64,000 nt of DNA from the NCBI GenBank assembly GCA_947493285.1, contig CANLQH010000002.1, forward strand, positions 450,062 to 514,061. The letters are read 5' to 3'. The translations under genes were made by a program, and so were the position numbers. This DNA is from an uncultured Tenacibaculum sp. (GTDB taxonomy: Bacteria; Bacteroidota; Bacteroidia; Flavobacteriales; Flavobacteriaceae). This document shows, piece by piece, positions 3,458 through 62,949 of this stretch. Position 1 is the first letter of the stretch. Each line of letters starts with the position of its first letter. The notes below the pieces were generated by a model. It was not told the DNA's origin. It made no database searches and was given only the letters and a program-made list of their open reading frames with translations.

Positions 3458-4038
3458 TATGCTAGTAACACTTTAATATTCGTCGCAAATAATTTAACTG
3501 CAATTGCTAATAATATTACTCCAAATATTTTTCGAATTATTTTTATTCCATTGTTACCTATCATCTTCTCTATTTTTGAAGATGTTTTTAACACTATATA
3601 TATCACCAATACATTTAATAAAACAGCTATAATGATATTTCCAATGTTAAACTCTGCTCTTAAAGAAAGTAATGTGGTTAAGCTACCTGGACCAGCAATT
3701 AAAGGAAAGGCTAGAGGAAATACTGTTGCTGTTAATGTTTCATCTTCATCATCTTTATATAAAGTAATCCCTAAAATCATTTCTAAAGCAATAAAAAACA
3801 AAATAAAAGCACCTGCAACTGCAAATGAATGCACGTCTATTCCTATTAAACTTAATAATCGTTCTCCTATAAAAAGAAACAAAATCATAATAAAGCCGGC
3901 AATAACTGAAGCTTTTTCAGATTGAATATGACCTACTTTTTTTCGTAAATCTATAATAATAGGAATGTTTCCAATAATATCAATTACAGCAAACAATACC
4001 ATGAAAGCAGTGAAAATTTCTTTTAAATTAAAATTCAT
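3457..4038 (-). CDS. MarC-family membrane protein
   Basis: LFAVIDIIGNIP; FPLAFPLIAGPGSLT; six hydrophobic segments. Confidence 0.88.
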   Translation of the reverse strand: MNFNLKEIFTAFMVLFAVIDIIGNIPIIIDLRKKVGHIQSEKASVIAGFIMILFLFIGERLLSLIGIDVHSFAVAGAFILFFIALEMILGITLYKDDEDETLTATVFPLAFPLIAGPGSLTTLLSLRAEFNIGNIIIAVLLNVLVIYIVLKTSSKIEKMIGNNGIKIIRKIFGVILLAIAVKLFATNIKVLLA

Positions 4039-4148
4039 ATTATGTTGTTTTTCGGGTACAAAATTAGATAAGTAATGTTACAATCTAGTATTTTTGCATC
4101 TAAATTTACGTGAAGTTTATGTAAACTTCTAACTTTAAAATATATTTT

Positions 4149-4721
4149 ATGTTTCAATTAGGAAAAACCATCGTTTCTGAAGACCTTATAGAAAAAGAAT
4201 TCGTTTGTAATTTATCTGCTTGTAAAGGTGCTTGTTGTATTGATGGAGATGCTGGTGCTCCACTAGAAGAGGAAGAAACTAAAATTTTAGAAGAAATATA
4301 TCCAAAAGTAAAGCCTTTTTTACGTAAAGAAGGTATTGATGCTATCGAAAAACAAGGAACTTGGATTAAAAGTGATTTTGGTGAGTTAGAAACTCCTTTG
4401 ATTAATGATGCTGACTGCGCCTATGTTATTTTTGATGATAAAGGAACGGCTTTATGTGCAATTGAAGAGGCCTATAATCAAGGATTAGTGGATTGGAAAA
4501 AACCTGTTTCTTGTCATTTATACCCAGTAAGAGTTAAAGATTTTAGTGAATTTTCGGCGGTAAATTACCACAAGTGGGAAATTTGTGATGATGCTTGTTC
4601 TTTAGGAAAAGAATTACAAGTACCTGTTTATAAATTTGTAAAGCAAGCTCTCGTAAGAAAGTTTGGACAAAATTGGTATGATGAATTAGAAAAAATGGCA
4701 GAAAAGCATTTGAAGAAATAA
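4149..4721 (+). CDS. DUF3109-family Cys-rich protein
   Basis: FVCNLSACKGACCIDGDAGAPL; KPVSCHLYPVR. Confidence 0.85.
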   Translation: MFQLGKTIVSEDLIEKEFVCNLSACKGACCIDGDAGAPLEEEETKILEEIYPKVKPFLRKEGIDAIEKQGTWIKSDFGELETPLINDADCAYVIFDDKGTALCAIEEAYNQGLVDWKKPVSCHLYPVRVKDFSEFSAVNYHKWEICDDACSLGKELQVPVYKFVKQALVRKFGQNWYDELEKMAEKHLKK

Positions 4722-5752: not shown

Positions 5753-6760
5753 TTAAACCACAACTGATGCTTTAACTAAATTATTTGCTACTAAATATTC
5801 AGCTATTTGAACCGTATTTGTAGCTGCTCCTTTTCGTAAATTATCAGAAACAATAAACATATTTAAAGCATTTTCCCTTGATAAATCTCTACGGATTCTA
5901 CCTACAAAAACATCATCTTTTCCTTCCGAATAAAAAGGCATTGGATATTCGTTATTCTCAGGGTTATCTTGAACTGTAACTCCATCTGTTTCCGACAAAA
6001 TATTACGTACTTCATCAACAGTAAAATGATTATCAAACTCAATGTTTACAGCTTCTGAATGACCTCCTACTACAGGAATACGAACACAAGTTGCCGTAAT
6101 TGCAATACTTGGATCATTTAAAATTTTGTGTGTTTCACGCACTAATTTTAATTCCTCTTTAGTATAACCTGCTTCTTCAAAAATATCACAATGCGGTAAT
6201 GCATTTTTATGAATTTGATGTGGATAAGCATTATCTCCATCTACACCATTAGCTTCGTTTTCTAACTGACGTACTGCTTTTACTCCTGTACCAGTAATAG
6301 ATTGATAAGTAGAAATAACCAAACGATTAATTTCATATTTTTTATGCAACGGAGCTAATGCCAATACCATTTGTATAGTAGAGCAATTAGGATTAGCTAT
6401 AATTTTATCTTCTTCCGTTAACTCAGATGCATTAATCTCAGGAACGATTAATTTTTTCGACGGATCCATTCTCCAAGCAGAAGAATTATCAATAACTGTG
6501 GTTCCAATTTCAGCAAATTTAGGAGCCCATTCTAACGAAGTACTTCCTCCTGCAGAAAACAAAGCGATATCTGGCTTCATTTCAACAGCTGTTGCTAAAC
6601 CTACAACCGTATAATCAGTTCCTTTAAATGCTATTTTATTTCCTACCGAACGTTCTGATGCCACAGGAATTAATTCTGTTACAGGAAAATTACGTTCTGC
6701 TAATATTTGTAACATTACATTACCTACCATACCGGTAGCGCCTACAACTGCTACTCTCAT
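5753..6760 (-). CDS. asd: Aspartate-semialdehyde dehydrogenase
   Basis: VVGATGMVG, IIANPNCST, SDNLRKGAATN. Confidence 0.97.
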   Translation of the reverse strand: MRVAVVGATGMVGNVMLQILAERNFPVTELIPVASERSVGNKIAFKGTDYTVVGLATAVEMKPDIALFSAGGSTSLEWAPKFAEIGTTVIDNSSAWRMDPSKKLIVPEINASELTEEDKIIANPNCSTIQMVLALAPLHKKYEINRLVISTYQSITGTGVKAVRQLENEANGVDGDNAYPHQIHKNALPHCDIFEEAGYTKEELKLVRETHKILNDPSIAITATCVRIPVVGGHSEAVNIEFDNHFTVDEVRNILSETDGVTVQDNPENNEYPMPFYSEGKDDVFVGRIRRDLSRENALNMFIVSDNLRKGAATNTVQIAEYLVANNLVKASVVV

Positions 6761-6967
6761 TTTGTGTGTTGTTTTATATTGAAGTACAAAGGTTTAAAAA
6801 AATCGAATTAGTTGTATCTCTTTTTATTAAAATTTTTAATTAAAGTTGAAAAAACATCATATTTAATGTAAAAAGTAATATTTTAAACACTAAAAATCAA
6901 AAAAATAGTACATTTGCATCGATTTTAAAGAATCGCAACATATTTTGTTTAACTAAAAAAGTATAGC

Positions 6968-7999
6968 ATGCAACTGTACAACAAGTTAAGCGCTGAAGAA
7001 CGCGCTAAATTAATAGACGAAGCCGGAAAAGACCGTTTAACCATCTCTTTCTATCAATATTTCAAGATAGAAAATCCAACTTTATTTAGAAATAAATTAT
7101 TCCTTGAATGGGACGCCTTAGATGTTCTAGGAAGAACTTATGTTTCTTACGAAGGTATCAATGCACAAATATCAGTTCCTTCTGAAAATTTCTTAGCACT
7201 AAAAGATCAATTAGATGCTATTTCGTTTTTAAAAGATATTCGATTAAATGTGGCTGTTGAGCAAGACAATAAATCTTTTTTAAAGTTAAAAGTTAAAGTT
7301 CGTAACAAAATTGTTGCTGATGGTTTAAATGACAATACATTTGATGTAACTGATAAAGGAGTACATTTAAATGCAAAAGAATTTAACGAGATGTTAGCGA
7401 ACCCAAATACGGTTTGTGTTGATATGCGTAATCATTACGAAAGTGAGATAGGTCATTTTGATGGGGCTGTAACACCAGATGTAGATACATTTCGTGACTC
7501 TTTGGATATTATTGAAGAAGATTTAAAAGATCATAAAGAAGATAAAAACCTATTAATGTATTGTACAGGTGGTATTCGTTGCGAAAAAGCATCTGCATAT
7601 TACAAGCATAAAGGATTTAAAAACGTTTTTCAGTTAGAGGGCGGAATTATAGAATATACTCGTCAGGTTAAATCTGAAGGAATTGAAAATAAGTTCATCG
7701 GTAAAAATTTTGTTTTTGACCATAGAAGAGCTGAACGAATTACTGATGATGTAATTTCTAATTGTCATCAATGTGGAAAAGCTTGTGATGAGCATACAAA
7801 TTGTGCGAACGAAGGTTGCCATTTATTATTTATCCAATGTGATGAGTGTTCAGAAAAAATGGAAAACACTTGTTCTACTGAGTGCCAAGAAATAATTCAA
7901 TTACCATTCGAAGAACAAAAAGCTTTACGTAAAGGAAAACACGCAAGTAATAAGATCTTTAAAAAAGGACGTTCTGAAAAGTTAAAATTTAAAAATTAA
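6968..7999 (+). CDS. trhO: tRNA uridine(34) hydroxylase / rhodanese-domain protein
   Basis: DMRNHYESEIGHF, MYCTGGIRCEKA, QLEGGIIEY, GKNFVFD, C-terminal Cys cluster. Confidence 0.9.
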   Translation: MQLYNKLSAEERAKLIDEAGKDRLTISFYQYFKIENPTLFRNKLFLEWDALDVLGRTYVSYEGINAQISVPSENFLALKDQLDAISFLKDIRLNVAVEQDNKSFLKLKVKVRNKIVADGLNDNTFDVTDKGVHLNAKEFNEMLANPNTVCVDMRNHYESEIGHFDGAVTPDVDTFRDSLDIIEEDLKDHKEDKNLLMYCTGGIRCEKASAYYKHKGFKNVFQLEGGIIEYTRQVKSEGIENKFIGKNFVFDHRRAERITDDVISNCHQCGKACDEHTNCANEGCHLLFIQCDECSEKMENTCSTECQEIIQLPFEEQKALRKGKHASNKIFKKGRSEKLKFKN

Positions 8000-8487: not shown

Positions 8488-9570
8488 ATGGAGTTACAAC
8501 CACCATATCGTAAAATTATTCATGTTGACATGGATGCTTTTTACGCATCAGTTGAGCAATTAGACAATCCTGATTTAATTGGTAAAGCGGTTGCCGTTGG
8601 AGGAAATGAAATTAGAGGAGTGGTTTCTGCCGCAAGTTATGAAGCTCGTAAATTCGGTGTACGATCTGCAATGAGCGGATTTTTAGCAAAAAAAAAATGT
8701 CCCCATTTAATTTTCGTCCCACCTAGATTTGATCGTTACAAAGAAATCTCATCAAAAATTAGAGCTATTTTTTATGATTATACCGATTTAGTAGAACCGC
8801 TATCTTTAGATGAAGCCTATTTAGATGTAACTGAGAATAAAAAAGGAAATGCTTCAGCAAGTATGATTGCTCAAGAAATTCGTAAACGTATTTGGGATGA
8901 ATTAGAATTAAAAGCTTCAGCAGGAATATCTATTAATAAATTTATCGCTAAAGTAGCTTCAGATATTAATAAGCCTAACGGGCAAAAAACCATAAACCCA
9001 GAAGATGTCATTCCTTTTTTAGAAGAACTTCCTGTAAATAAATTTTATGGGGTCGGTAAAGTAACTGCTGCTAAAATGCATAACCTAGGAATCTTTACAG
9101 GATTAGATTTAAAGAAAAAAACGTTAGAAGAGCTTTCTGTTTTATTTGGAAAATCAGGGGTTCATTATTTTAATATTGTTAGAGGAATCCACAATAGTAA
9201 AGTAAAACCTAATCGAGTTCGAAAATCTATTGCTGCCGAACGTACTTTTAATGAAAATCTATCTTCAGAAGTTTTTATGCTAGATCGTTTGGATAAAATT
9301 GCTGAGGAATTAGAACGAAGAATGAAAAAATCGAATACAAAGGGTAAAACGGTTACTTTAAAAATCAAATACAGCGACTTTACACAACAAACTCGTAGCA
9401 AAACTACCAATCATTATATTCAACTAAAAAAAGAGTTTTATCCTATTGTTAAAGAGCTGTTGTATCAAGAAAAACTTAAAAACTCCGTACGCCTTTTAGG
9501 AATTTCTTTCAGTAATTTAAATACAGAGAAAAAAGATCCTATTTGGGTACAATTAAAATTCGATTTTTAA
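8488..9570 (+). CDS. dinB: DNA polymerase IV
   Basis: IIHVDMDAFYASVEQ, SYEARKFGVRSAM, SLDEAYLD. Confidence 0.96.
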   Translation: MELQPPYRKIIHVDMDAFYASVEQLDNPDLIGKAVAVGGNEIRGVVSAASYEARKFGVRSAMSGFLAKKKCPHLIFVPPRFDRYKEISSKIRAIFYDYTDLVEPLSLDEAYLDVTENKKGNASASMIAQEIRKRIWDELELKASAGISINKFIAKVASDINKPNGQKTINPEDVIPFLEELPVNKFYGVGKVTAAKMHNLGIFTGLDLKKKTLEELSVLFGKSGVHYFNIVRGIHNSKVKPNRVRKSIAAERTFNENLSSEVFMLDRLDKIAEELERRMKKSNTKGKTVTLKIKYSDFTQQTRSKTTNHYIQLKKEFYPIVKELLYQEKLKNSVRLLGISFSNLNTEKKDPIWVQLKFDF

Positions 9571-11483
9571 ACTATCGGAAGCATTAAAGATACTTTTGTT
9601 CCGTTTGGTTTTCCTTTTTCATCAACCAAATCTACATACTCTAAAGAATAAGTATTTATAAATTCATTTGAAAAATTCTTTAGCCTTTCTTTTGTTAAAT
9701 CAATTCCTATCGACTTTCTGTTTAAAGACTTACTGTTCTTTATTTTAAAAGCAGCATCTCTACCGATACCGTTATCTATAATATTAATTTCGATAAATTC
9801 TTTTGAAAATTTCTCAATGGTTAAATCTACCTTCTTTTCTCCTTTCTTTGATGACAATCCGTGCCAAATAGCGTTTTCAAGAAAAGGCTGTAATACTAAT
9901 GGTGGTAATTTAATTCTCTCTAAATTTAAATCATCCGCAATATTTTCTTTATATGTTATTTCATTAGAGAATCGAATATTTTCAATACTCATGTAAAGAT
10001 TCATTGTTTTCAACTCTTCAGAAAGAGCAACTTCTTTTACTGTTGTAGATTCTAGAATATTACGAATTAGTTTAGAGAACTTATTTAAATAATAAACCGC
10101 ATTTTTCTGCTCATTATTTATAATATAAAGTTTAATTGAATTTAAAGCATTAAATACAAAATGTGGATTCATTTGAATTCTAAGCGCTTCTTGTTCTAAT
10201 AATAAAATCTGTTTGTCGTTTTTTAATAAACGTTGTCTGTAAATTGAATATAATAATACTCCAAATAAAGCAATAGAAACCAGCGAAATAATTAAAATGT
10301 TTCTATTTCTTAGTAGTTTAAGCTTTGAAATCTCATTCTCTCGTGCTAAACTTTTTAATTTATTATTACTTACTTCACTATCATATTTGTTAATTAAACT
10401 ATTTACATAACGAATGGTTTTAGCGTTAAATGTTTTATTTTTAACTTCAATTGATTTTTTAAAAAACTCTAAAGACTCCTTATAATTTCCTTCCTTCTCA
10501 TTTAGTTCAGATAAATGATCATATGATAATACTAAACTTGAGGGAATATTATTGTCTATCCCTATTTTTAGTGCTTTATCTAAATAGTCTCTGGATTCTT
10601 TTAACCTATTTAATTTTAAAAGCGACCATCCTAAAGTATTATAAACTTCAGATAAATAATACCTATTGCCTATTTCTTCTGCAGATTCAATAACTTCTGT
10701 AATATATTCGTAAGCTTCATTATATTTTCCTTGCTTAATTAAAATATCACTAATACTATTATGACATATAACTTTACCAAGCTTATCATTATTTAACCTG
10801 TTGTATTCTAAAGATTTTTGATAATTTTCTAAAGCTAAGTCTAAGTCTCCAATATTCTTGTGCGCGTACCCAATGTTTTGATGATTAATCGCTAGTCCCC
10901 TGCGGTCTTCTAATTGTTTTTGAAGCGCAATAGACTCGCTAAACTTTTCTAAGGCTCTTTCATATTGACCTAGCGTTAAATATATATTACCAATACTATT
11001 AATTGTAATACTATTACTAATCTTTATATCGTTAGTAGGATTTTCTACTTTTAAAATAATATCTAATGCTGATTGATGGTAATTTAAAGCTCCTCTTATT
11101 TTATCTTGTCTTCTACAGACTACTCCTAATTGATTTAAAGTTACAATTTCAGCTTCTATACTTTTTATCTCCTTAGATAAATTTAAAGCTTCCTTATACT
11201 TTTCAACAGCTTTATTATACTCAGTTACATTTCTATGTGAACGTCCTTGAACATTTCTAGCAAAAATCTCACCTATTACATAGTTGTTTTTTTGACTTTC
11301 ATTTAAAAGTTTTTCTATTTGTTCCTCTTTAAAACGTACTCTTTTAAAATGCTTTTGAAGTTTAAAATAACTTGATTCTTTTTTTTCAATTGCTGAGACA
11401 ATTAAACTATCTACATTCTTTTTTTGAGAAAAGCTTAATGTTGAAATTAAAAATAATAATATGGAAGTGTAAATAAATTTCAT
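9567..11483 (-). CDS. TPR-repeat periplasmic sensor histidine kinase (LytS-type His_kinase)
   Basis: Signal peptide, many TPR-like helices (TLNQLGVV, INSIGNIY, NHQNIGYAH), one TM segment, ALRIQMNPHFVFNALNSIK, LQPFLENAIWHG, IIDNGIGR. Confidence 0.9.
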   Translation of the reverse strand: MKFIYTSILLFLISTLSFSQKKNVDSLIVSAIEKKESSYFKLQKHFKRVRFKEEQIEKLLNESQKNNYVIGEIFARNVQGRSHRNVTEYNKAVEKYKEALNLSKEIKSIEAEIVTLNQLGVVCRRQDKIRGALNYHQSALDIILKVENPTNDIKISNSITINSIGNIYLTLGQYERALEKFSESIALQKQLEDRRGLAINHQNIGYAHKNIGDLDLALENYQKSLEYNRLNNDKLGKVICHNSISDILIKQGKYNEAYEYITEVIESAEEIGNRYYLSEVYNTLGWSLLKLNRLKESRDYLDKALKIGIDNNIPSSLVLSYDHLSELNEKEGNYKESLEFFKKSIEVKNKTFNAKTIRYVNSLINKYDSEVSNNKLKSLARENEISKLKLLRNRNILIISLVSIALFGVLLYSIYRQRLLKNDKQILLLEQEALRIQMNPHFVFNALNSIKLYIINNEQKNAVYYLNKFSKLIRNILESTTVKEVALSEELKTMNLYMSIENIRFSNEITYKENIADDLNLERIKLPPLVLQPFLENAIWHGLSSKKGEKKVDLTIEKFSKEFIEINIIDNGIGRDAAFKIKNSKSLNRKSIGIDLTKERLKNFSNEFINTYSLEYVDLVDEKGKPNGTKVSLMLPIV

Positions 11484-11484
11484 T

Positions 11485-12219
11485 TTAAAACTTTTCTAAG
11501 AAATCAGATTTTCTTTGACGTGATACAGGTATTTTATGGTTGTCTTCTAAAATCACATATCCATCAGACTTTAAGAACTCTTTTATTTTATTTAAATTTA
11601 TGACAAATGAATTATGGATTCTAAAAAAATGTTCATCAGGAAGCAATTCATTTATTTCTTTCAACTTTTTAGTAACCACAATTTTTTTATTTAATGTTGT
11701 GTGAATTGAACAATAGTTCCCATCTGATTCTACAAATAAAATTTCTGATTGATCTAAGAAAATAAGTTTTCCATCAGTATTAATAGTTATTTTTCTTCTA
11801 TTAAACTTCTGAGTAAAGCTGGATAATATTTTTTCGAATTTCTCACTGCTATTATTCTTACTATTATGATTTTTAATCCTATTAATAGTAGCTTCTAAAT
11901 CATCTGTATCGATTGGTTTTAACAAATAATCAATTGCTTCGTTTTTTAAAGCTTTAATTGCGTACTCATTATATGCTGTTGTAATAACTACCGCGAAATC
12001 CCTTTTATTTAATTTCTCTAATAATTGAAAGCCATCCATAGTTGGCATTTCAATATCTAAAAAAAGACAATCAATTGAACTCTCGTTAATATGTTTTATT
12101 GCTTTGTCTGCTTCTGTAAACGTATTTATAATTTCAATATCTTTATCAAAATTTGATAATTCCCAGGAAAGACTTTGTATAGCCTTTGGCTCATCATCAA
12201 CAATAATTGCTCTTAACAT
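11485..12219 (-). CDS. LytTR-family response regulator
   Basis: Start moved to MLRAIIVDDE; LFLDIEMPTMDG, TTAYNEYA, YLLKP; LytTR FFRIHNSFVINL, IPVSRQRK. Confidence 0.93.
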   Translation of the reverse strand: MLRAIIVDDEPKAIQSLSWELSNFDKDIEIINTFTEADKAIKHINESSIDCLFLDIEMPTMDGFQLLEKLNKRDFAVVITTAYNEYAIKALKNEAIDYLLKPIDTDDLEATINRIKNHNSKNNSSEKFEKILSSFTQKFNRRKITINTDGKLIFLDQSEILFVESDGNYCSIHTTLNKKIVVTKKLKEINELLPDEHFFRIHNSFVINLNKIKEFLKSDGYVILEDNHKIPVSRQRKSDFLEKF

Positions 12220-12330
12220 TTTGTAGGGATTTTCACCAAATGTAACTGATATAAGTGTAAAATTAAAATACCACATCAGTCTTTTACCCTATAGTTGAGT
12301 TCTCCTTTTACTTAAAAAAAAAGAATACCT

Positions 12331-12405: not shown

Positions 12406-12495
12406 ATAATACACAAGGGGATCATATTGATAAATTGGGGGATTAATCAATAATGACAAAATTTAAAAGACATCGTTATATAACGATGTCTTTTT
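12406..12495 (+). ncRNA. Candidate G-loop sRNA copy A
   Basis: 57-nt core identical to copy B; AAGGGGAT plus hairpin with TGGGGG loop; terminator AAAAGACATCGTT/AACGATGTCTTTTT at 12465-12495. Confidence 0.7.
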
Positions 12496-12528
12496 ATTTA
12501 TAACAAAATTACTTCTACCCTTTAATTT

Positions 12529-12603: not shown

Positions 12604-12694
12604 ATAATACACAAGGGGATCATATTGATAAATTGGGGGATTAATCAATAATGACAAAATCAAAAAAAGCATTACATAGCGTAATGCTTTTTTT
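12604..12694 (+). ncRNA. Candidate G-loop sRNA copy B
   Basis: 57-nt core 12604-12660 identical to 12406-12462; different terminator AAAAAAAGCATTAC/GTAATGCTTTTTTT at 12662-12694. Confidence 0.7.
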
Positions 12695-12731
12695 ATGCAA
12701 CAATTTAAAATAAAAACTTTTTGATATACAA

Positions 12732-48580: not shown

Positions 48581-49111
48581 ATGAGAAAACTAAAGAATAG
48601 CGAGTTAGGTAGAAAAACAGTTGAAGAATTTAAACAAACTAAAAAAACACCGATTATTGTGGTGCTCGACAATATCCGTAGTTTAAATAATATTGGTTCT
48701 GTTTTTAGAACTTCGGATGCTTTTTTAATCGAAAAAATTTATTTGTGCGGTATTACAGCAACGCCTCCTAACAAAGAAATTCATAAAACTGCTTTAGGAT
48801 CTACCGAATCGGTTGAGTGGGAATATATAGAAGATACGTTAACACTAGTTAATAAATTAAAAAGCGACGGTGTTTTTGTGGCTTCAATAGAGCAAGCTGA
48901 AAACAGTACCATGCTAAATGATTTTACACCTTTATCAGATAAAAAATACGCTATTGTAATGGGTAATGAGGTAAAAGGAGTGCAGCAAGAAGTAGTTTCT
49001 GCTTCTGATGCCTGTATTGAAATACCTCAATTAGGAACCAAACATTCTTTAAATATCTCGGTAAGTTGCGGAGTCGTGATTTGGGATTTATTTACCAAAA
49101 TTACCTTATAA
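48581..49111 (+). CDS. TrmH/SpoU-family RNA methyltransferase
   Basis: LDNIRSLNNIGSVFRT, GNEVKGV, IPQLGTKHSLNISV. Confidence 0.92.
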   Translation: MRKLKNSELGRKTVEEFKQTKKTPIIVVLDNIRSLNNIGSVFRTSDAFLIEKIYLCGITATPPNKEIHKTALGSTESVEWEYIEDTLTLVNKLKSDGVFVASIEQAENSTMLNDFTPLSDKKYAIVMGNEVKGVQQEVVSASDACIEIPQLGTKHSLNISVSCGVVIWDLFTKITL

Positions 49112-49247
49112 AGGTTAATTACTATCTATAATCAAAAAACAACCTTAAAAAGTTTGTTAATTTCTTGGCTTTCTCCCATAAACACTATACTTTAGAGACT
49201 TTATTTTTAGTCCCCCACAAAAATTGTTTAATTAAAACCCTATAATT

Positions 49248-49403
49248 ATGGAAAACAAAAATTTACAAGAAGTGGCAATGACGTTAAGTCCTGATACAGA
49301 CAACCCAACTACTGGTGATACAGGAGGAACAGGTGGCACAGAAAGACCAACTACTGGTGGTGGTGGAACCGGAAATGGTAATGACGATCCAACAAAATCT
49401 TAA
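49248..49403 (+). CDS. 51-aa Gly/Thr/Asp-rich peptide upstream of TPR sensor kinase (not in ORF track)
   Basis: MENKNLQEVAMTLSPDTDNPTTGDTGGTGGTERPTTGGGGTGNGNDDPTKS; A-rich start context; GC clearly above the surrounding intergenic DNA. Confidence 0.75.
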   Translation: MENKNLQEVAMTLSPDTDNPTTGDTGGTGGTERPTTGGGGTGNGNDDPTKS

Positions 49404-49450
49404 TTTAATTATAATAAAACCATCACTATATGTGGTGGTTTTATAATATT

Positions 49451-51298
49451 ATGCGTAATCTTCTTTTTTTCTTTTTTTTCACTTCATTTATTATTGCTCA
49501 AAACAAAAAAAACACTTTAAATAATGAGCAAGATTCCGTTGTATTTTCTAATACAATGATAAAAGCTTTATCTTTTTTTAGAGAAAAAAAACTGGATTCG
49601 TTCAAAAAATATAGTTTTAAGGCATTTTATCTTAGTAAAAAAAATAAAGACTTACAAAAAGTACATTTTTATCTAGCTACCTATTATAAATACGCTAAAA
49701 AACCAGATAGTGCTTACTATCATTACTATCAATCAAAAAATATTTTATTAGACCTCAATGATAGTATAACTGCGGGTAGAAGAATGTTTAGTATAGCCAA
49801 TATTAAACTTGCAGAAAATGATTTATTAGGTAGTGAAATATCATCTATAAACAGCTTAAAACATGTTGAAAACTCAAATTTACATAGAGTAAAACATCTT
49901 GTTTATGTAAATCTTGGGATTATTTCACATCGAAGAAAAGAACTCAATGATGCTTTAAAGTATTATAATTTAAGCTTAAAAGAGTTAGAAAATGACTCTT
50001 TACAAAACTTAGATTTACAGCTTAATGTAATCAATAATAAAGGTGTTTTATTTCAATCTTTCGAACAACATGAAAAAGCAATTCCTTTTTTTAAAGAAGG
50101 TTTAGCGTTTGATAGTATTAAAGAAAAGTACCCTACTCAATATGCTTTGTTATTAGAAAATTTAGCTTATAGCAATTATATGTTTGGAAATAAAAAAAAT
50201 GTTTTAAAGCAGTATGAAGAAGTATTAAAAATTAGAGAAAAAAGAAACAACCTTAGTGGGGCCAGTATTACACAAATAAATCTATCTAACTATTACAAAG
50301 ACCTTAATCAAAAAACAAAGGCAAAATTTCATGCTAATCGAGCTTTAAAATACGCCAAACAAACTCACAATAATAAAAAATGGTTAGAAGCTTTACAAAA
50401 TCTTTCAGAATTGACAACAGGTATACAATCAACAAAATATTTACAAGAATACATTACGCTAAACGATAGTTTATTTCAAAAAGAACGTTTGTTAAAAAAC
50501 CAATTTGCTAAAATAGAATATGAAACTGAGAAAAAAGAAAAAGAAAACACCGTTTTAAAAACTGAGAATGAAAAAAAACAAGCAGAAATTACTTACCAAA
50601 AACAGCAAAAAACAATCGGTTGGCTAGCTGCAGCCAGCGGTATATTGCTATTTGGTTTAAGTGTAATGTTTTATTTTCAAAGAAGGAGAAAATTACTGTA
50701 TCAAGCCCAGTTAGAAAGAGTACAGGCTAGAGAACACGAACGTCAACAAATTGCAAAATCTTTACATGATGAAGTTGCAGGAGATTTACGTTTATTACAT
50801 CAAAAGCTAGAGAAATCAAACCTATTAGAAGAAGCACAAAAACTAGATGCCGTTAAAGACAACGTACGTAATTTATCGCATCAGTTAAGTAGTGTTAGTT
50901 TTGATAAAGTTTCTTTTAAAGACCAAATAATTAATTTAGTTAGTGATTATTTTGAGCTTGATTTTAGAATATCAGTTAATGGTTTACATAAGTACGAATG
51001 GGAACCGATTAATGATGCTATTAAACGCTTGCTATATTTAAGTACTCGAGAAAGTATACAAAACAGCAAAAAATATGCTGAAGCAGATAAACTAACCATA
51101 GATTTTACCCTAGAAAAAAAATATGTACATTTGAATATTACTGACAATGGCATCGGTTTTGATACTAATACCAGTAAAAAAGGAATTGGTTTACAAAACC
51201 TACAAGAACGTGTTGAAGAGTTAAACGGAACTCTAAATATTGACAGCGAAGTAGGTAACGGAACCAAAACTAATATTCAAATACCCTTAAATGCTTGA
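49451..51298 (+). CDS. TPR-repeat periplasmic sensor histidine kinase (HisKA_3 type)
   Basis: Signal peptide MRNLLFFFFF; TPR helices; one TM segment; ERQQIAKSLHDEVAG; TDNGIGF, GIGLQNLQERV. Confidence 0.92.
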   Translation: MRNLLFFFFFTSFIIAQNKKNTLNNEQDSVVFSNTMIKALSFFREKKLDSFKKYSFKAFYLSKKNKDLQKVHFYLATYYKYAKKPDSAYYHYYQSKNILLDLNDSITAGRRMFSIANIKLAENDLLGSEISSINSLKHVENSNLHRVKHLVYVNLGIISHRRKELNDALKYYNLSLKELENDSLQNLDLQLNVINNKGVLFQSFEQHEKAIPFFKEGLAFDSIKEKYPTQYALLLENLAYSNYMFGNKKNVLKQYEEVLKIREKRNNLSGASITQINLSNYYKDLNQKTKAKFHANRALKYAKQTHNNKKWLEALQNLSELTTGIQSTKYLQEYITLNDSLFQKERLLKNQFAKIEYETEKKEKENTVLKTENEKKQAEITYQKQQKTIGWLAAASGILLFGLSVMFYFQRRRKLLYQAQLERVQAREHERQQIAKSLHDEVAGDLRLLHQKLEKSNLLEEAQKLDAVKDNVRNLSHQLSSVSFDKVSFKDQIINLVSDYFELDFRISVNGLHKYEWEPINDAIKRLLYLSTRESIQNSKKYAEADKLTIDFTLEKKYVHLNITDNGIGFDTNTSKKGIGLQNLQERVEELNGTLNIDSEVGNGTKTNIQIPLNA

Positions 51299-62385: not shown

Positions 62386-62949
62386 TTAAATATGCTTCCT
62401 TATCCTACTTAAAGTTTCTGGAGTAATTCCTAAATAGGAAGCAACCATTTTTAAAGGTATTCTGTAATATATACTCTTGTATGTTTTACAAAAGTGATCA
62501 TATTTTTCTTTTGCTGTAGTAAATCGTATAGAAGTGATTCGTTCCATTAAAAGTCCAAAAGAATTACCCATATCCATTCGGGCATATTTTTCCATTTCAG
62601 GGAAATTATCAAAAAGATAAATCAAATCTTTCACTGCTAATATAACAACTTCACAATCCTCTATAACGTCAATAGAGTAATGATCAATTTTTTGCTGCAT
62701 AAAACTTCTTGGGGAATTAATCCATTCTCCCAAACTACAAAAAAACTCACTAATTTCTTTTTCCTCTTTTATAAAATAAAGTCGCAGTATTCCTTTTTCT
62801 ATAAAATAACTATGCTGACAAACTTCATTTGCATAATGGATTATATCTCCTTTTTTAAAAGTTTTTATGGTTGTTCTTTTAGTAAGCTCTGTACGTAACT
62901 CTTTGGATAATTTTATACGCTTAGATATGTTTTCAAATAACTTAATCAT
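62386..62949 (-). CDS. Crp/Fnr-family transcriptional regulator
   Basis: FIEKGILRLY, cNMP-binding fold, IPLKMVASYLGITPETLSRIR. Confidence 0.92.
   Translation of the reverse strand: MIKLFENISKRIKLSKELRTELTKRTTIKTFKKGDIIHYANEVCQHSYFIEKGILRLYFIKEEKEISEFFCSLGEWINSPRSFMQQKIDHYSIDVIEDCEVVILAVKDLIYLFDNFPEMEKYARMDMGNSFGLLMERITSIRFTTAKEKYDHFCKTYKSIYYRIPLKMVASYLGITPETLSRIRKHI

Follow-up and report, generated by a model that had tools for sequence, protein, structure and literature searches.

A run of cytosines near the predicted 5' end of the mRNA is, judging from orthologous leaders, a selected element of a peptide/kinase/regulator operon in part of the genus Tenacibaculum, and it is regarded here, tentatively, as the docking site for the GGGG(A) seeds of small RNAs (sRNAs) from two neighbouring two-component systems. 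The element was studied in a window, that is, a stretch of DNA of 64 kb with a G+C content of 30.6% (intergenic composition A 37%, T 38%) whose nearest relatives are Tenacibaculum genomes. A sequence-only reading of this window had pointed out that an 11-nt segment of the peptide gene leader (TTAGTCCCCCA/UUAGUCCCCCA, 49207-49217, plus strand, with the five-cytosine core at 49212-49216, ending 30 nt short of the ATG at 49248) is complementary to G-rich motifs of sRNAs encoded in the same window, and had proposed that a LytTR system could regulate the operon and that one of the operon-linked RNAs, RNA 3, could feed back on its own input. All of its sequences and coordinates were exact on re-reading. 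A generic interaction between G-runs and the C-run is plausible; cross-talk specific to the LytTR system and feedback through the particular site of RNA 3 are unproven.

The window holds two sensor systems, which are separate and have 37 kb between them. The LytTR-linked system includes a TPR histidine kinase and a LytTR response regulator (9567-12276, minus strand), divergent from two tandem sRNA copies on the plus strand (12406-12498 and 12604-12696), each of ~93 nt, with the loop UUGGGGGAUUAA at 12435-12446 in the first copy and the loop of the second at 12633-12644. The other system, on the plus strand, begins with the gene of a 51-codon Gly/Thr-rich peptide (49248-49403; N-terminus MENKNLQE), an ORF that is kept in relatives and that gave no match in a Pfam search. 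It continues with a TPR histidine kinase (49452-51298; Pfam TPR_12 and HATPase_c), listed as an ORF from 49430 and probably starting at the ATG at 49452 to judge from the N-termini of its orthologues, and with a response regulator of 225 aa (51291-51968; Pfam Response_reg) whose relatives are named NarL/FixJ family. The peptide and kinase genes are separated by a strong terminator-like hairpin (49410-49448, plus strand) of 13 bp, with arms AAAACCAUCAC...GUGGUGGUUUU and a minimum free energy (MFE) of -17.1 kcal/mol (z = -5.8 against shuffles); counterparts are readable in the loci L109, L111 and L115, the species named being T. insulae, T. gallaicum and T. holothuriorum. This hairpin is probably a terminator or attenuator setting the peptide:kinase ratio.

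Three RNA units (51974-52590, plus strand) follow the regulator gene, each headed by paired GCGGAAATCC repeats ~22 bp apart and by a TAnnTTTG -7 box. Five repeats of this type were located ahead of RNA units 1-3, at 51974, 51996, 52151, 52173 and 52339 (51974-52348), and similar repeats occur 3' of the regulator gene in nearly all orthologous loci; none was found in the promoter of the peptide gene. From their position after the regulator gene, they are putative operators of the operon's own regulator. RNA 1 (52042-52132) carries UUGGGGAA in a hairpin loop, RNA 2 (52218-52298) contains single-stranded UUUAAGGGGAAAAA with an opening energy of 0.4 kcal/mol, and RNA 3 (52386-52590) has three GGGG motifs, the third of which (52463-52471) is the 9-nt match to the leader and falls within a 33-codon ORF (52431-52532). 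GGGGAUU is common to the sRNA motifs GGGGAUUAA and to the operator when read on its complementary strand, GGGGATTTCCGC (51974-52348), and read-through from one RNA unit into the operator of the next would yield an RNA complementary to the seeds.

For a comparative anatomy of the promoter, 17 orthologous leaders were gathered from 22 genome loci recovered via the kinase, one close metagenome locus and four species recovered via the regulator protein; the metagenome scan, made with a regulator profile, gained one close leader (L029), the other hits being Polaribacter-type or unrelated regulators. Five cytosines are present in the window, L001, L002 (T. lutimaris), L004, L005 (T. ovolyticum), L008 (T. 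aestuarii), L009 (T. pelagium), L011, L029 and T. gallaicum, with six in one of these loci, and T. holothuriorum has four at the same position of a leader that is otherwise barely alignable, which makes a total of 11 leaders with the C-run in several species. Mean pairwise identity among six representative leaders is 0.88 in the run, 0.51 from the -7 box to the run and 0.64 from the run to the ATG. Lack of conservation of the motif had been named in the sequence-only reading as an argument against its proposal; the run is conserved in these 11 leaders while its flanks diverge. The run is located 11-16 nt 3' of the -7 box in every case and 31-58 nt from the ATG, and this combination of a steady and a variable spacing indicates that it is positioned relative to the 5' end of the RNA and not to the start codon.

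Such runs are rare in these genomes. In most loci the C-run is the sole C or G run of at least five in 7-10 kb, the background of runs of at least five amounts to ~0.035 per strand-kb with the leader hits removed, and no 5' leader of the 64-kb window other than that of the peptide gene contains a C-run of at least four. A second run of three to four cytosines occurs two to three bases further on in L002, L008, L029 and T. gallaicum. The orthologous leaders of L006/L007, T. adriaticum, T. geojense, T. insulae, L013, L017 and L021 have no C-run, and in loci that are devoid of the peptide gene (T. finnmarkense, L014, L018 and L033) a C-run is found ahead of the kinase gene.

Promoters of Bacteroidota are characterized by TTTG at -33 and TAnnTTTG at -7 (PMC7366714). 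The peptide operon has a -33-like TTG at 49165-49167 (plus strand), 20 nt 5' of a -7-like box (TACTTTAG, 49188-49195) that is one base off the TAnnTTTG consensus. The TTG is kept in most of the closer Tenacibaculum orthologous promoters and is missing from L006/L007 and the Polaribacter-type loci, and TTTAG/TTAG (TTTAA in two) occurs at the matching place in all 17 orthologous leaders, including those of the Polaribacter-type loci. This anatomy predicts a transcription start near 49200-49203, so that the C-run would span roughly positions +10 to +17 of the transcript, and from it we infer that the site belongs to the mRNA. Among sequencing runs, the locus was found in low-depth metagenome contigs, which carry no 5'-end information, and in no RNA run. 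Transcription starting only after 49217, which the sequence-only reading had listed as incompatible with its proposal, is unlikely according to this promoter prediction, and no -7-like box was detected from the C-run site to the ATG. Sigma-70 promoter and terminator scans of 48900-49600 gave no matches; the promoter type of this organism differs from that sought in the former, and the latter overlooked the hairpin at 49410-49448 that folding shows plainly. As no terminator follows the upstream SpoU methylase gene, read-through transcription would also cover the C-run site. Two other arrangements were rejected, namely a promoter nearer the ATG that would have the C-run as its operator on the upstream side, since TATAATTA overlaps the conserved start codon, and a LytTR operator in the peptide promoter, as CCATAAACAC resembles ACCATTTACACA but is single and not conserved.

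The 11-mer of the leader pairs with the loop TGGGGGATTAA/UGGGGGAUUAA of the two LytTR-linked sRNAs (12436-12446 and 12634-12644) over 11 nt (10 Watson-Crick, one G.U). Its pairing with GGGGATTAA/GGGGAUUAA of RNA 3 (52463-52471) extends over 9 nt. A match of 11 nt is at chance level for a search of 64 kb. TCCCCCA is found three times in the window (both strands) against 1.42 expected, two of these occurrences being antisense of the sRNA genes. When each 40-nt segment on both strands of the window was scanned for its pairing energy with the 23-nt LytTR loop region, the leader site ranked second (-18.3 kcal/mol) behind a site at 62707-62720 on the minus strand (-21.0 kcal/mol), and 12 dinucleotide shuffles of the window gave minima of -17.3 to -21.9 kcal/mol, 10 of them having several segments at or below -18. 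The TCCCCCA count and the shuffles justify the caution with which the sequence-only reading had treated one short match. The energy scan superseded a count in which G.U pairs were allowed without restriction (27 matches observed, 31 expected), which is uninformative because T-runs pair with the G-run. The top-ranking site belongs to a cNMP-binding/Crp-like gene (62386-62949, minus strand), within whose coding sequence GAUUAAUUCCCCAA forms a duplex of 14 nt, including one G.U pair, with UUGGGGGAUUAAUC of the LytTR-sRNA loop. The site may represent either a further target or a chance match, and -21.0 kcal/mol is attained by the shuffles.

The non-random features of the match are its placement and its conservation. 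Among 60 5' regions, the peptide leader ranks first against the LytTR loop (-18.3 kcal/mol; mean -8.0, sd 2.5) and also first for the third motif of RNA 3. Assuming that ~3 sites per window arise by chance and that leaders make up ~2-3 kb, the probability of a hit was estimated post hoc as ~0.05 for some leader and about 0.001-0.005 for the peptide leader specifically. Against the G5 loop, leaders with the C-run reach -12.9 to -18.6 kcal/mol and those without it only -2.6 to -7.2 kcal/mol.

In all of the sRNAs, no feature is better conserved across the genus than GGGG(A), which is located in predicted single-stranded parts, with seed opening energies of 0.4-4.9 kcal/mol; the exception to this conservation is the coding motif of RNA 3 at 52463. 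Nearly all the intergenic G-runs of the window sit in these two-component-linked sRNAs. The LytTR sRNA displays a 5' single-stranded CAAGGGGAU in addition to the hairpin loop UUGGGGGAUUAA. This loop recurs unchanged in L026, T. insulae, T. gallaicum and T. finnmarkense; T. ovolyticum has the variant UUGGGGAAUUAUU and T. holothuriorum the variant UUAGGGGUUAUU, GGGG(G)A being kept in the loop of six genomes. The motifs of RNAs 1-3 (UUGGGGAA, UUUAAGGGGAAAA and UUAAGGGGAAUU) are found from locus to locus in regions predicted to be open, and the Polaribacter-type loci encode one sRNA, which contains GGGAUUAAUUGC and the loop UUAGGGGCUU. Neither sRNA set matches an Rfam family, only a tRNA being recovered at the gathering threshold, and an E-value search of both sets against Rfam gave sub-threshold noise only.

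Matched sRNA/leader pairs from six genomes were used to compare the energies of each leader with its own and with foreign loops, and no co-variation was found among them. The C5 leader of T. ovolyticum pairs at -9.6 kcal/mol with its own G4 loop against -15.5 with the window-type loop, and the C4 leader of T. holothuriorum at -12.6 kcal/mol with its own loop against -13.3 with a foreign one; in the 8-bp pairing of the latter species (AGGGGUUA:UAACCCCU) the base adjacent to the run is changed on both sides with no energy advantage. Co-occurrence of the C-run with particular sRNA units as a rule was ruled out by T. insulae, which has the G5 LytTR loop and all three local RNAs without the C-run. 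G-rich sRNAs are kept without the C-run in T. insulae, L006/L007, T. adriaticum and T. geojense, and in L006/L007 the C-run, RNA 1 and RNA 3 are all missing. Opening of the 12-nt LytTR loop costs 4.9 kcal/mol and that of the C-run 5.4 kcal/mol in the window, where part of the run is predicted to pair in cis (0.1-5.4 kcal/mol across species). As a consequence of these costs the net energy of the LytTR loop with the leader is ~-8 kcal/mol, a modelled value that would be inside the usual range for real sRNA-target pairs and is not compelling. Neither an excess of complementarity nor co-variation was observed, which counts against classing the leader and the sRNAs as an sRNA-target pair. Regulation of the operon by the LytTR system is consistent with a promoter upstream of the site, a selected C-run, conserved G-motifs and the LytTR loop as the best partner in the comparison of 5' regions; the extent of 11 nt, which is at chance level, and a pairing that does not co-vary between genomes count against it, so that this part of the proposal stands only partially.

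The local RNAs pair with their own C-run leaders at -9.6 to -16.4 kcal/mol and with leaders devoid of the run at -1.7 to -7.8 kcal/mol. The feedback that had been attributed to 52463-52471 of RNA 3 is not supported by the comparison, given that this site corresponds to the codons K-G-L of a conserved 33-aa ORF and that its nucleotides are not kept in seven relatives (L002, L005, L008, L029, T. gallaicum, T. insulae and T. holothuriorum), with AAAGGGTTAAC, ACAGGAGTT, AAAGGCTTAA and similar sequences replacing them in other species. The site is conserved as protein-coding sequence and not as an RNA seed, for which it is weak, and the other motifs of the local RNAs reach just the G-C core of 4-5 bp.

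Were the C-run a docking site for GGGG(A) seeds, the operon's own regulator would drive RNAs 1-3, resulting in feedback, and the LytTR system would drive the tandem sRNAs, resulting in cross-talk. The C-run would sit at the extreme 5' end of the mRNA, outside the initiation footprint of the ribosome, and its fixed distance from the -7 box together with its variable distance from the ATG suggests that pairing would act on the 5' end and not by blocking ribosomes. Pairing in vivo, with whichever of these sRNAs is the partner, may alter the stability of the mRNA or the structure of its 5' end, with either a positive or a negative effect. Bacteroidota do not have classical Shine-Dalgarno sites and use A-rich leaders (PMC7366714), which makes 5'-end-dependent decay or leader structure likelier than an effect on ribosome binding. 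The hairpin at 49410-49448 suggests that much of the transcription may stop there, giving rise to a transcript of ~245 nt with the C-run at its 5' end. A broader proposition, to which we give a low probability, is that the LytTR-type and NarL-like systems converge, by means of shared GGGG(A)-seed sRNAs, on the C-run of a pheromone-like peptide mRNA; if true, this would be a quorum-sensing-like circuit of Bacteroidota with post-transcriptional feedback and cross-talk through a G-run/C-run code at the mRNA 5' end.

Other roles can be conceived for the C-run. It is unlikely, in our judgement, that the run acts in cis by pairing with GGU-rich Gly codons late in the peptide ORF, a long-range closing of the short peptide transcript that would affect its stability or translation and make the sRNA match incidental. 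For 8 of the 10 orthologues, the C-run is joined in the MFE fold to a G-rich part of the peptide ORF (through a GGUGG-type stretch, 100-133 nt past the AUG, in 7 of those), opening costs are 3-5 kcal/mol in most orthologues, and the strong hairpin that follows the peptide gene points to a short transcript of its own. However, the predicted pairs are short and bulged, any C-run would meet the Gly-codon tract, the pairing is absent from the folds of L004 and T. holothuriorum, and species without the C-run still have Gly-rich peptides; both sides of this pairing, being homopolymeric, are uninformative about covariation. A low probability is likewise assigned to a function of another kind, for instance as a protein-binding or RNase-related 5' element, the complementarity being then a coincidence helped by AU-rich flanks. 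The rarity of both G-runs and C-runs in this DNA is difficult to reconcile with such a coincidence, and G-runs in the two-component sRNAs along with the sole leader C-run in the operon of one of those same systems would be unexpected if they were unrelated, even though the match energy is at chance level, neither co-variation nor co-occurrence with particular sRNAs was found and the AU-rich composition eases pairing of the AUUAA-type flanks.

An element that operates on the DNA past the transcription start, either as a site for the regulator or another protein (autoregulation by roadblock) or through an effect of the initially transcribed sequence, is considered quite unlikely. The operators of the regulator read GCGG(A/T)(A/T)ATCCCC, and the leaders of L002 and L008 (ttGGTTATCCCCC and ttGGATATCCCCC), which contain GG(T/A)TATCCCCC, are operator-like except for GC. 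Just past the predicted start, ttGGTTATCCCCCg (L002, 3676-3691) and ttGGATATCCCCCg (L008, 3745-3760) resemble the half-site GCGGWWATCCCC, and AAATCCCCTTTT, which precedes the kinase gene in T. finnmarkense, is exactly the 3' part of the operator. The pattern of conservation is nevertheless reversed, in that GCGG is the invariant part of the operators, which often have lost their C-run (e.g., GCGGAAATAC and GCGGAAATCT), whereas in the leaders C5 is invariant and GCGG is absent from all. Moreover, the window's own leader shares just TCCCC with the operator, and it has one element where the operators are direct repeats ~22 bp apart.

Docking of GGGG(A) seeds on the C-run, the reading favoured here, would, if real, have relatives among known regulatory circuits. 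In enterobacteria a response regulator activates the tandem sRNA genes OmrA/OmrB, whose seed pairs with the 5' UTR of ompR-envZ. This system resembles the present one in the use of a conserved seed against the 5' UTR of its own operon, far upstream of the start codon, to form a feedback loop; the Tenacibaculum case differs in that it concerns Bacteroidota, a G-run seed, a C-run target at the 5' end and a peptide-first operon, and is known from sequence alone. We know of no Hfq-type partner for it. The Qrr sRNAs of Vibrio, which feed back on the luxO and luxMN mRNAs, are similar in that several near-redundant sRNAs from a two-component/quorum-sensing pathway pair with signalling mRNAs of that same pathway; they depend on a sigma-54/LuxO promoter and differ in seed and phylum, and a second input of the LytTR type may exist here. 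The agr system of S. aureus (AgrA and RNAIII) shares with the window a LytTR regulator divergent from an sRNA gene that it probably activates, a peptide/kinase/regulator operon and an RNA encoding a small protein (RNA 3 here, delta-toxin in RNAIII). In contrast, the seeds of RNAIII are C-rich loops acting on G-rich Shine-Dalgarno regions, which is the opposite polarity, the LytTR system and the peptide operon are here two systems 37 kb apart, and RNAIII is not known to us to target the agr mRNA leader. The RoxS/RsaE-type sRNAs of Firmicutes have seeds made of homopolymeric runs repeated in several single-stranded regions, and one of their known modes is pairing at the extreme 5' end of the target, altering its stability; their seeds are C-rich and act on G-rich ribosome-binding sites, unlike the G-rich seeds and C-rich target described above.

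To our knowledge, post-transcriptional control in Flavobacteriia is almost unexplored. The searchable literature describes no sRNA-target pair for Tenacibaculum and no comparable sRNA feedback pair for the phylum, in which Shine-Dalgarno sequences are largely missing (PMC7366714). Five conserved cytosines at the predicted 5' end, which share their regulatory neighbourhood with G-run sRNAs, offer a precise target. If the pairing is real, it would be the phylum's first case of an operon for two-component or peptide signalling that receives feedback or cross-talk from an sRNA, and an example of sRNA action at the 5' end where Shine-Dalgarno-based initiation is missing; if it is not, the C-run would still be a conserved leader element that lacks an explanation.

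The orthologous loci vary in their composition. In L005 (T. ovolyticum, 6380-7900) the regulator-linked array is enlarged to at least six units, comprising RNA 1, RNA 3 and at least four RNA 2-like units that carry an additional AUAUGGGGAUAUAAC motif, and is interrupted by an N stretch. L113 (T. finnmarkense, 680-1070) has no peptide gene and carries a duplicated remnant of the 3' end of the SpoU methylase gene upstream of the kinase, with AAATCCCCTTTT 9 nt ahead of the kinase ATG and a downstream array of two near-identical RNA 1-type units. At the kinase start of L007 (Tenacibaculum sp. A30, 4007-4522) there is just an ATG-initiated ORF of 171 aa, and the gene is possibly broken. L021/L022 (MAG OZ251501, 4142-5525) are two copies of the locus in which the kinase is split by a transposase-like ORF of 406 aa. 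In L013-L018, L020 and L033 one sRNA is located 3' of the regulator gene, with a conserved GGGATTAATTGC and the hairpin loop UUAGGGGCUU; the Polaribacter-type sRNA is preceded by one clear GCGGAAATCC repeat and is a more distant relative of the Tenacibaculum units.
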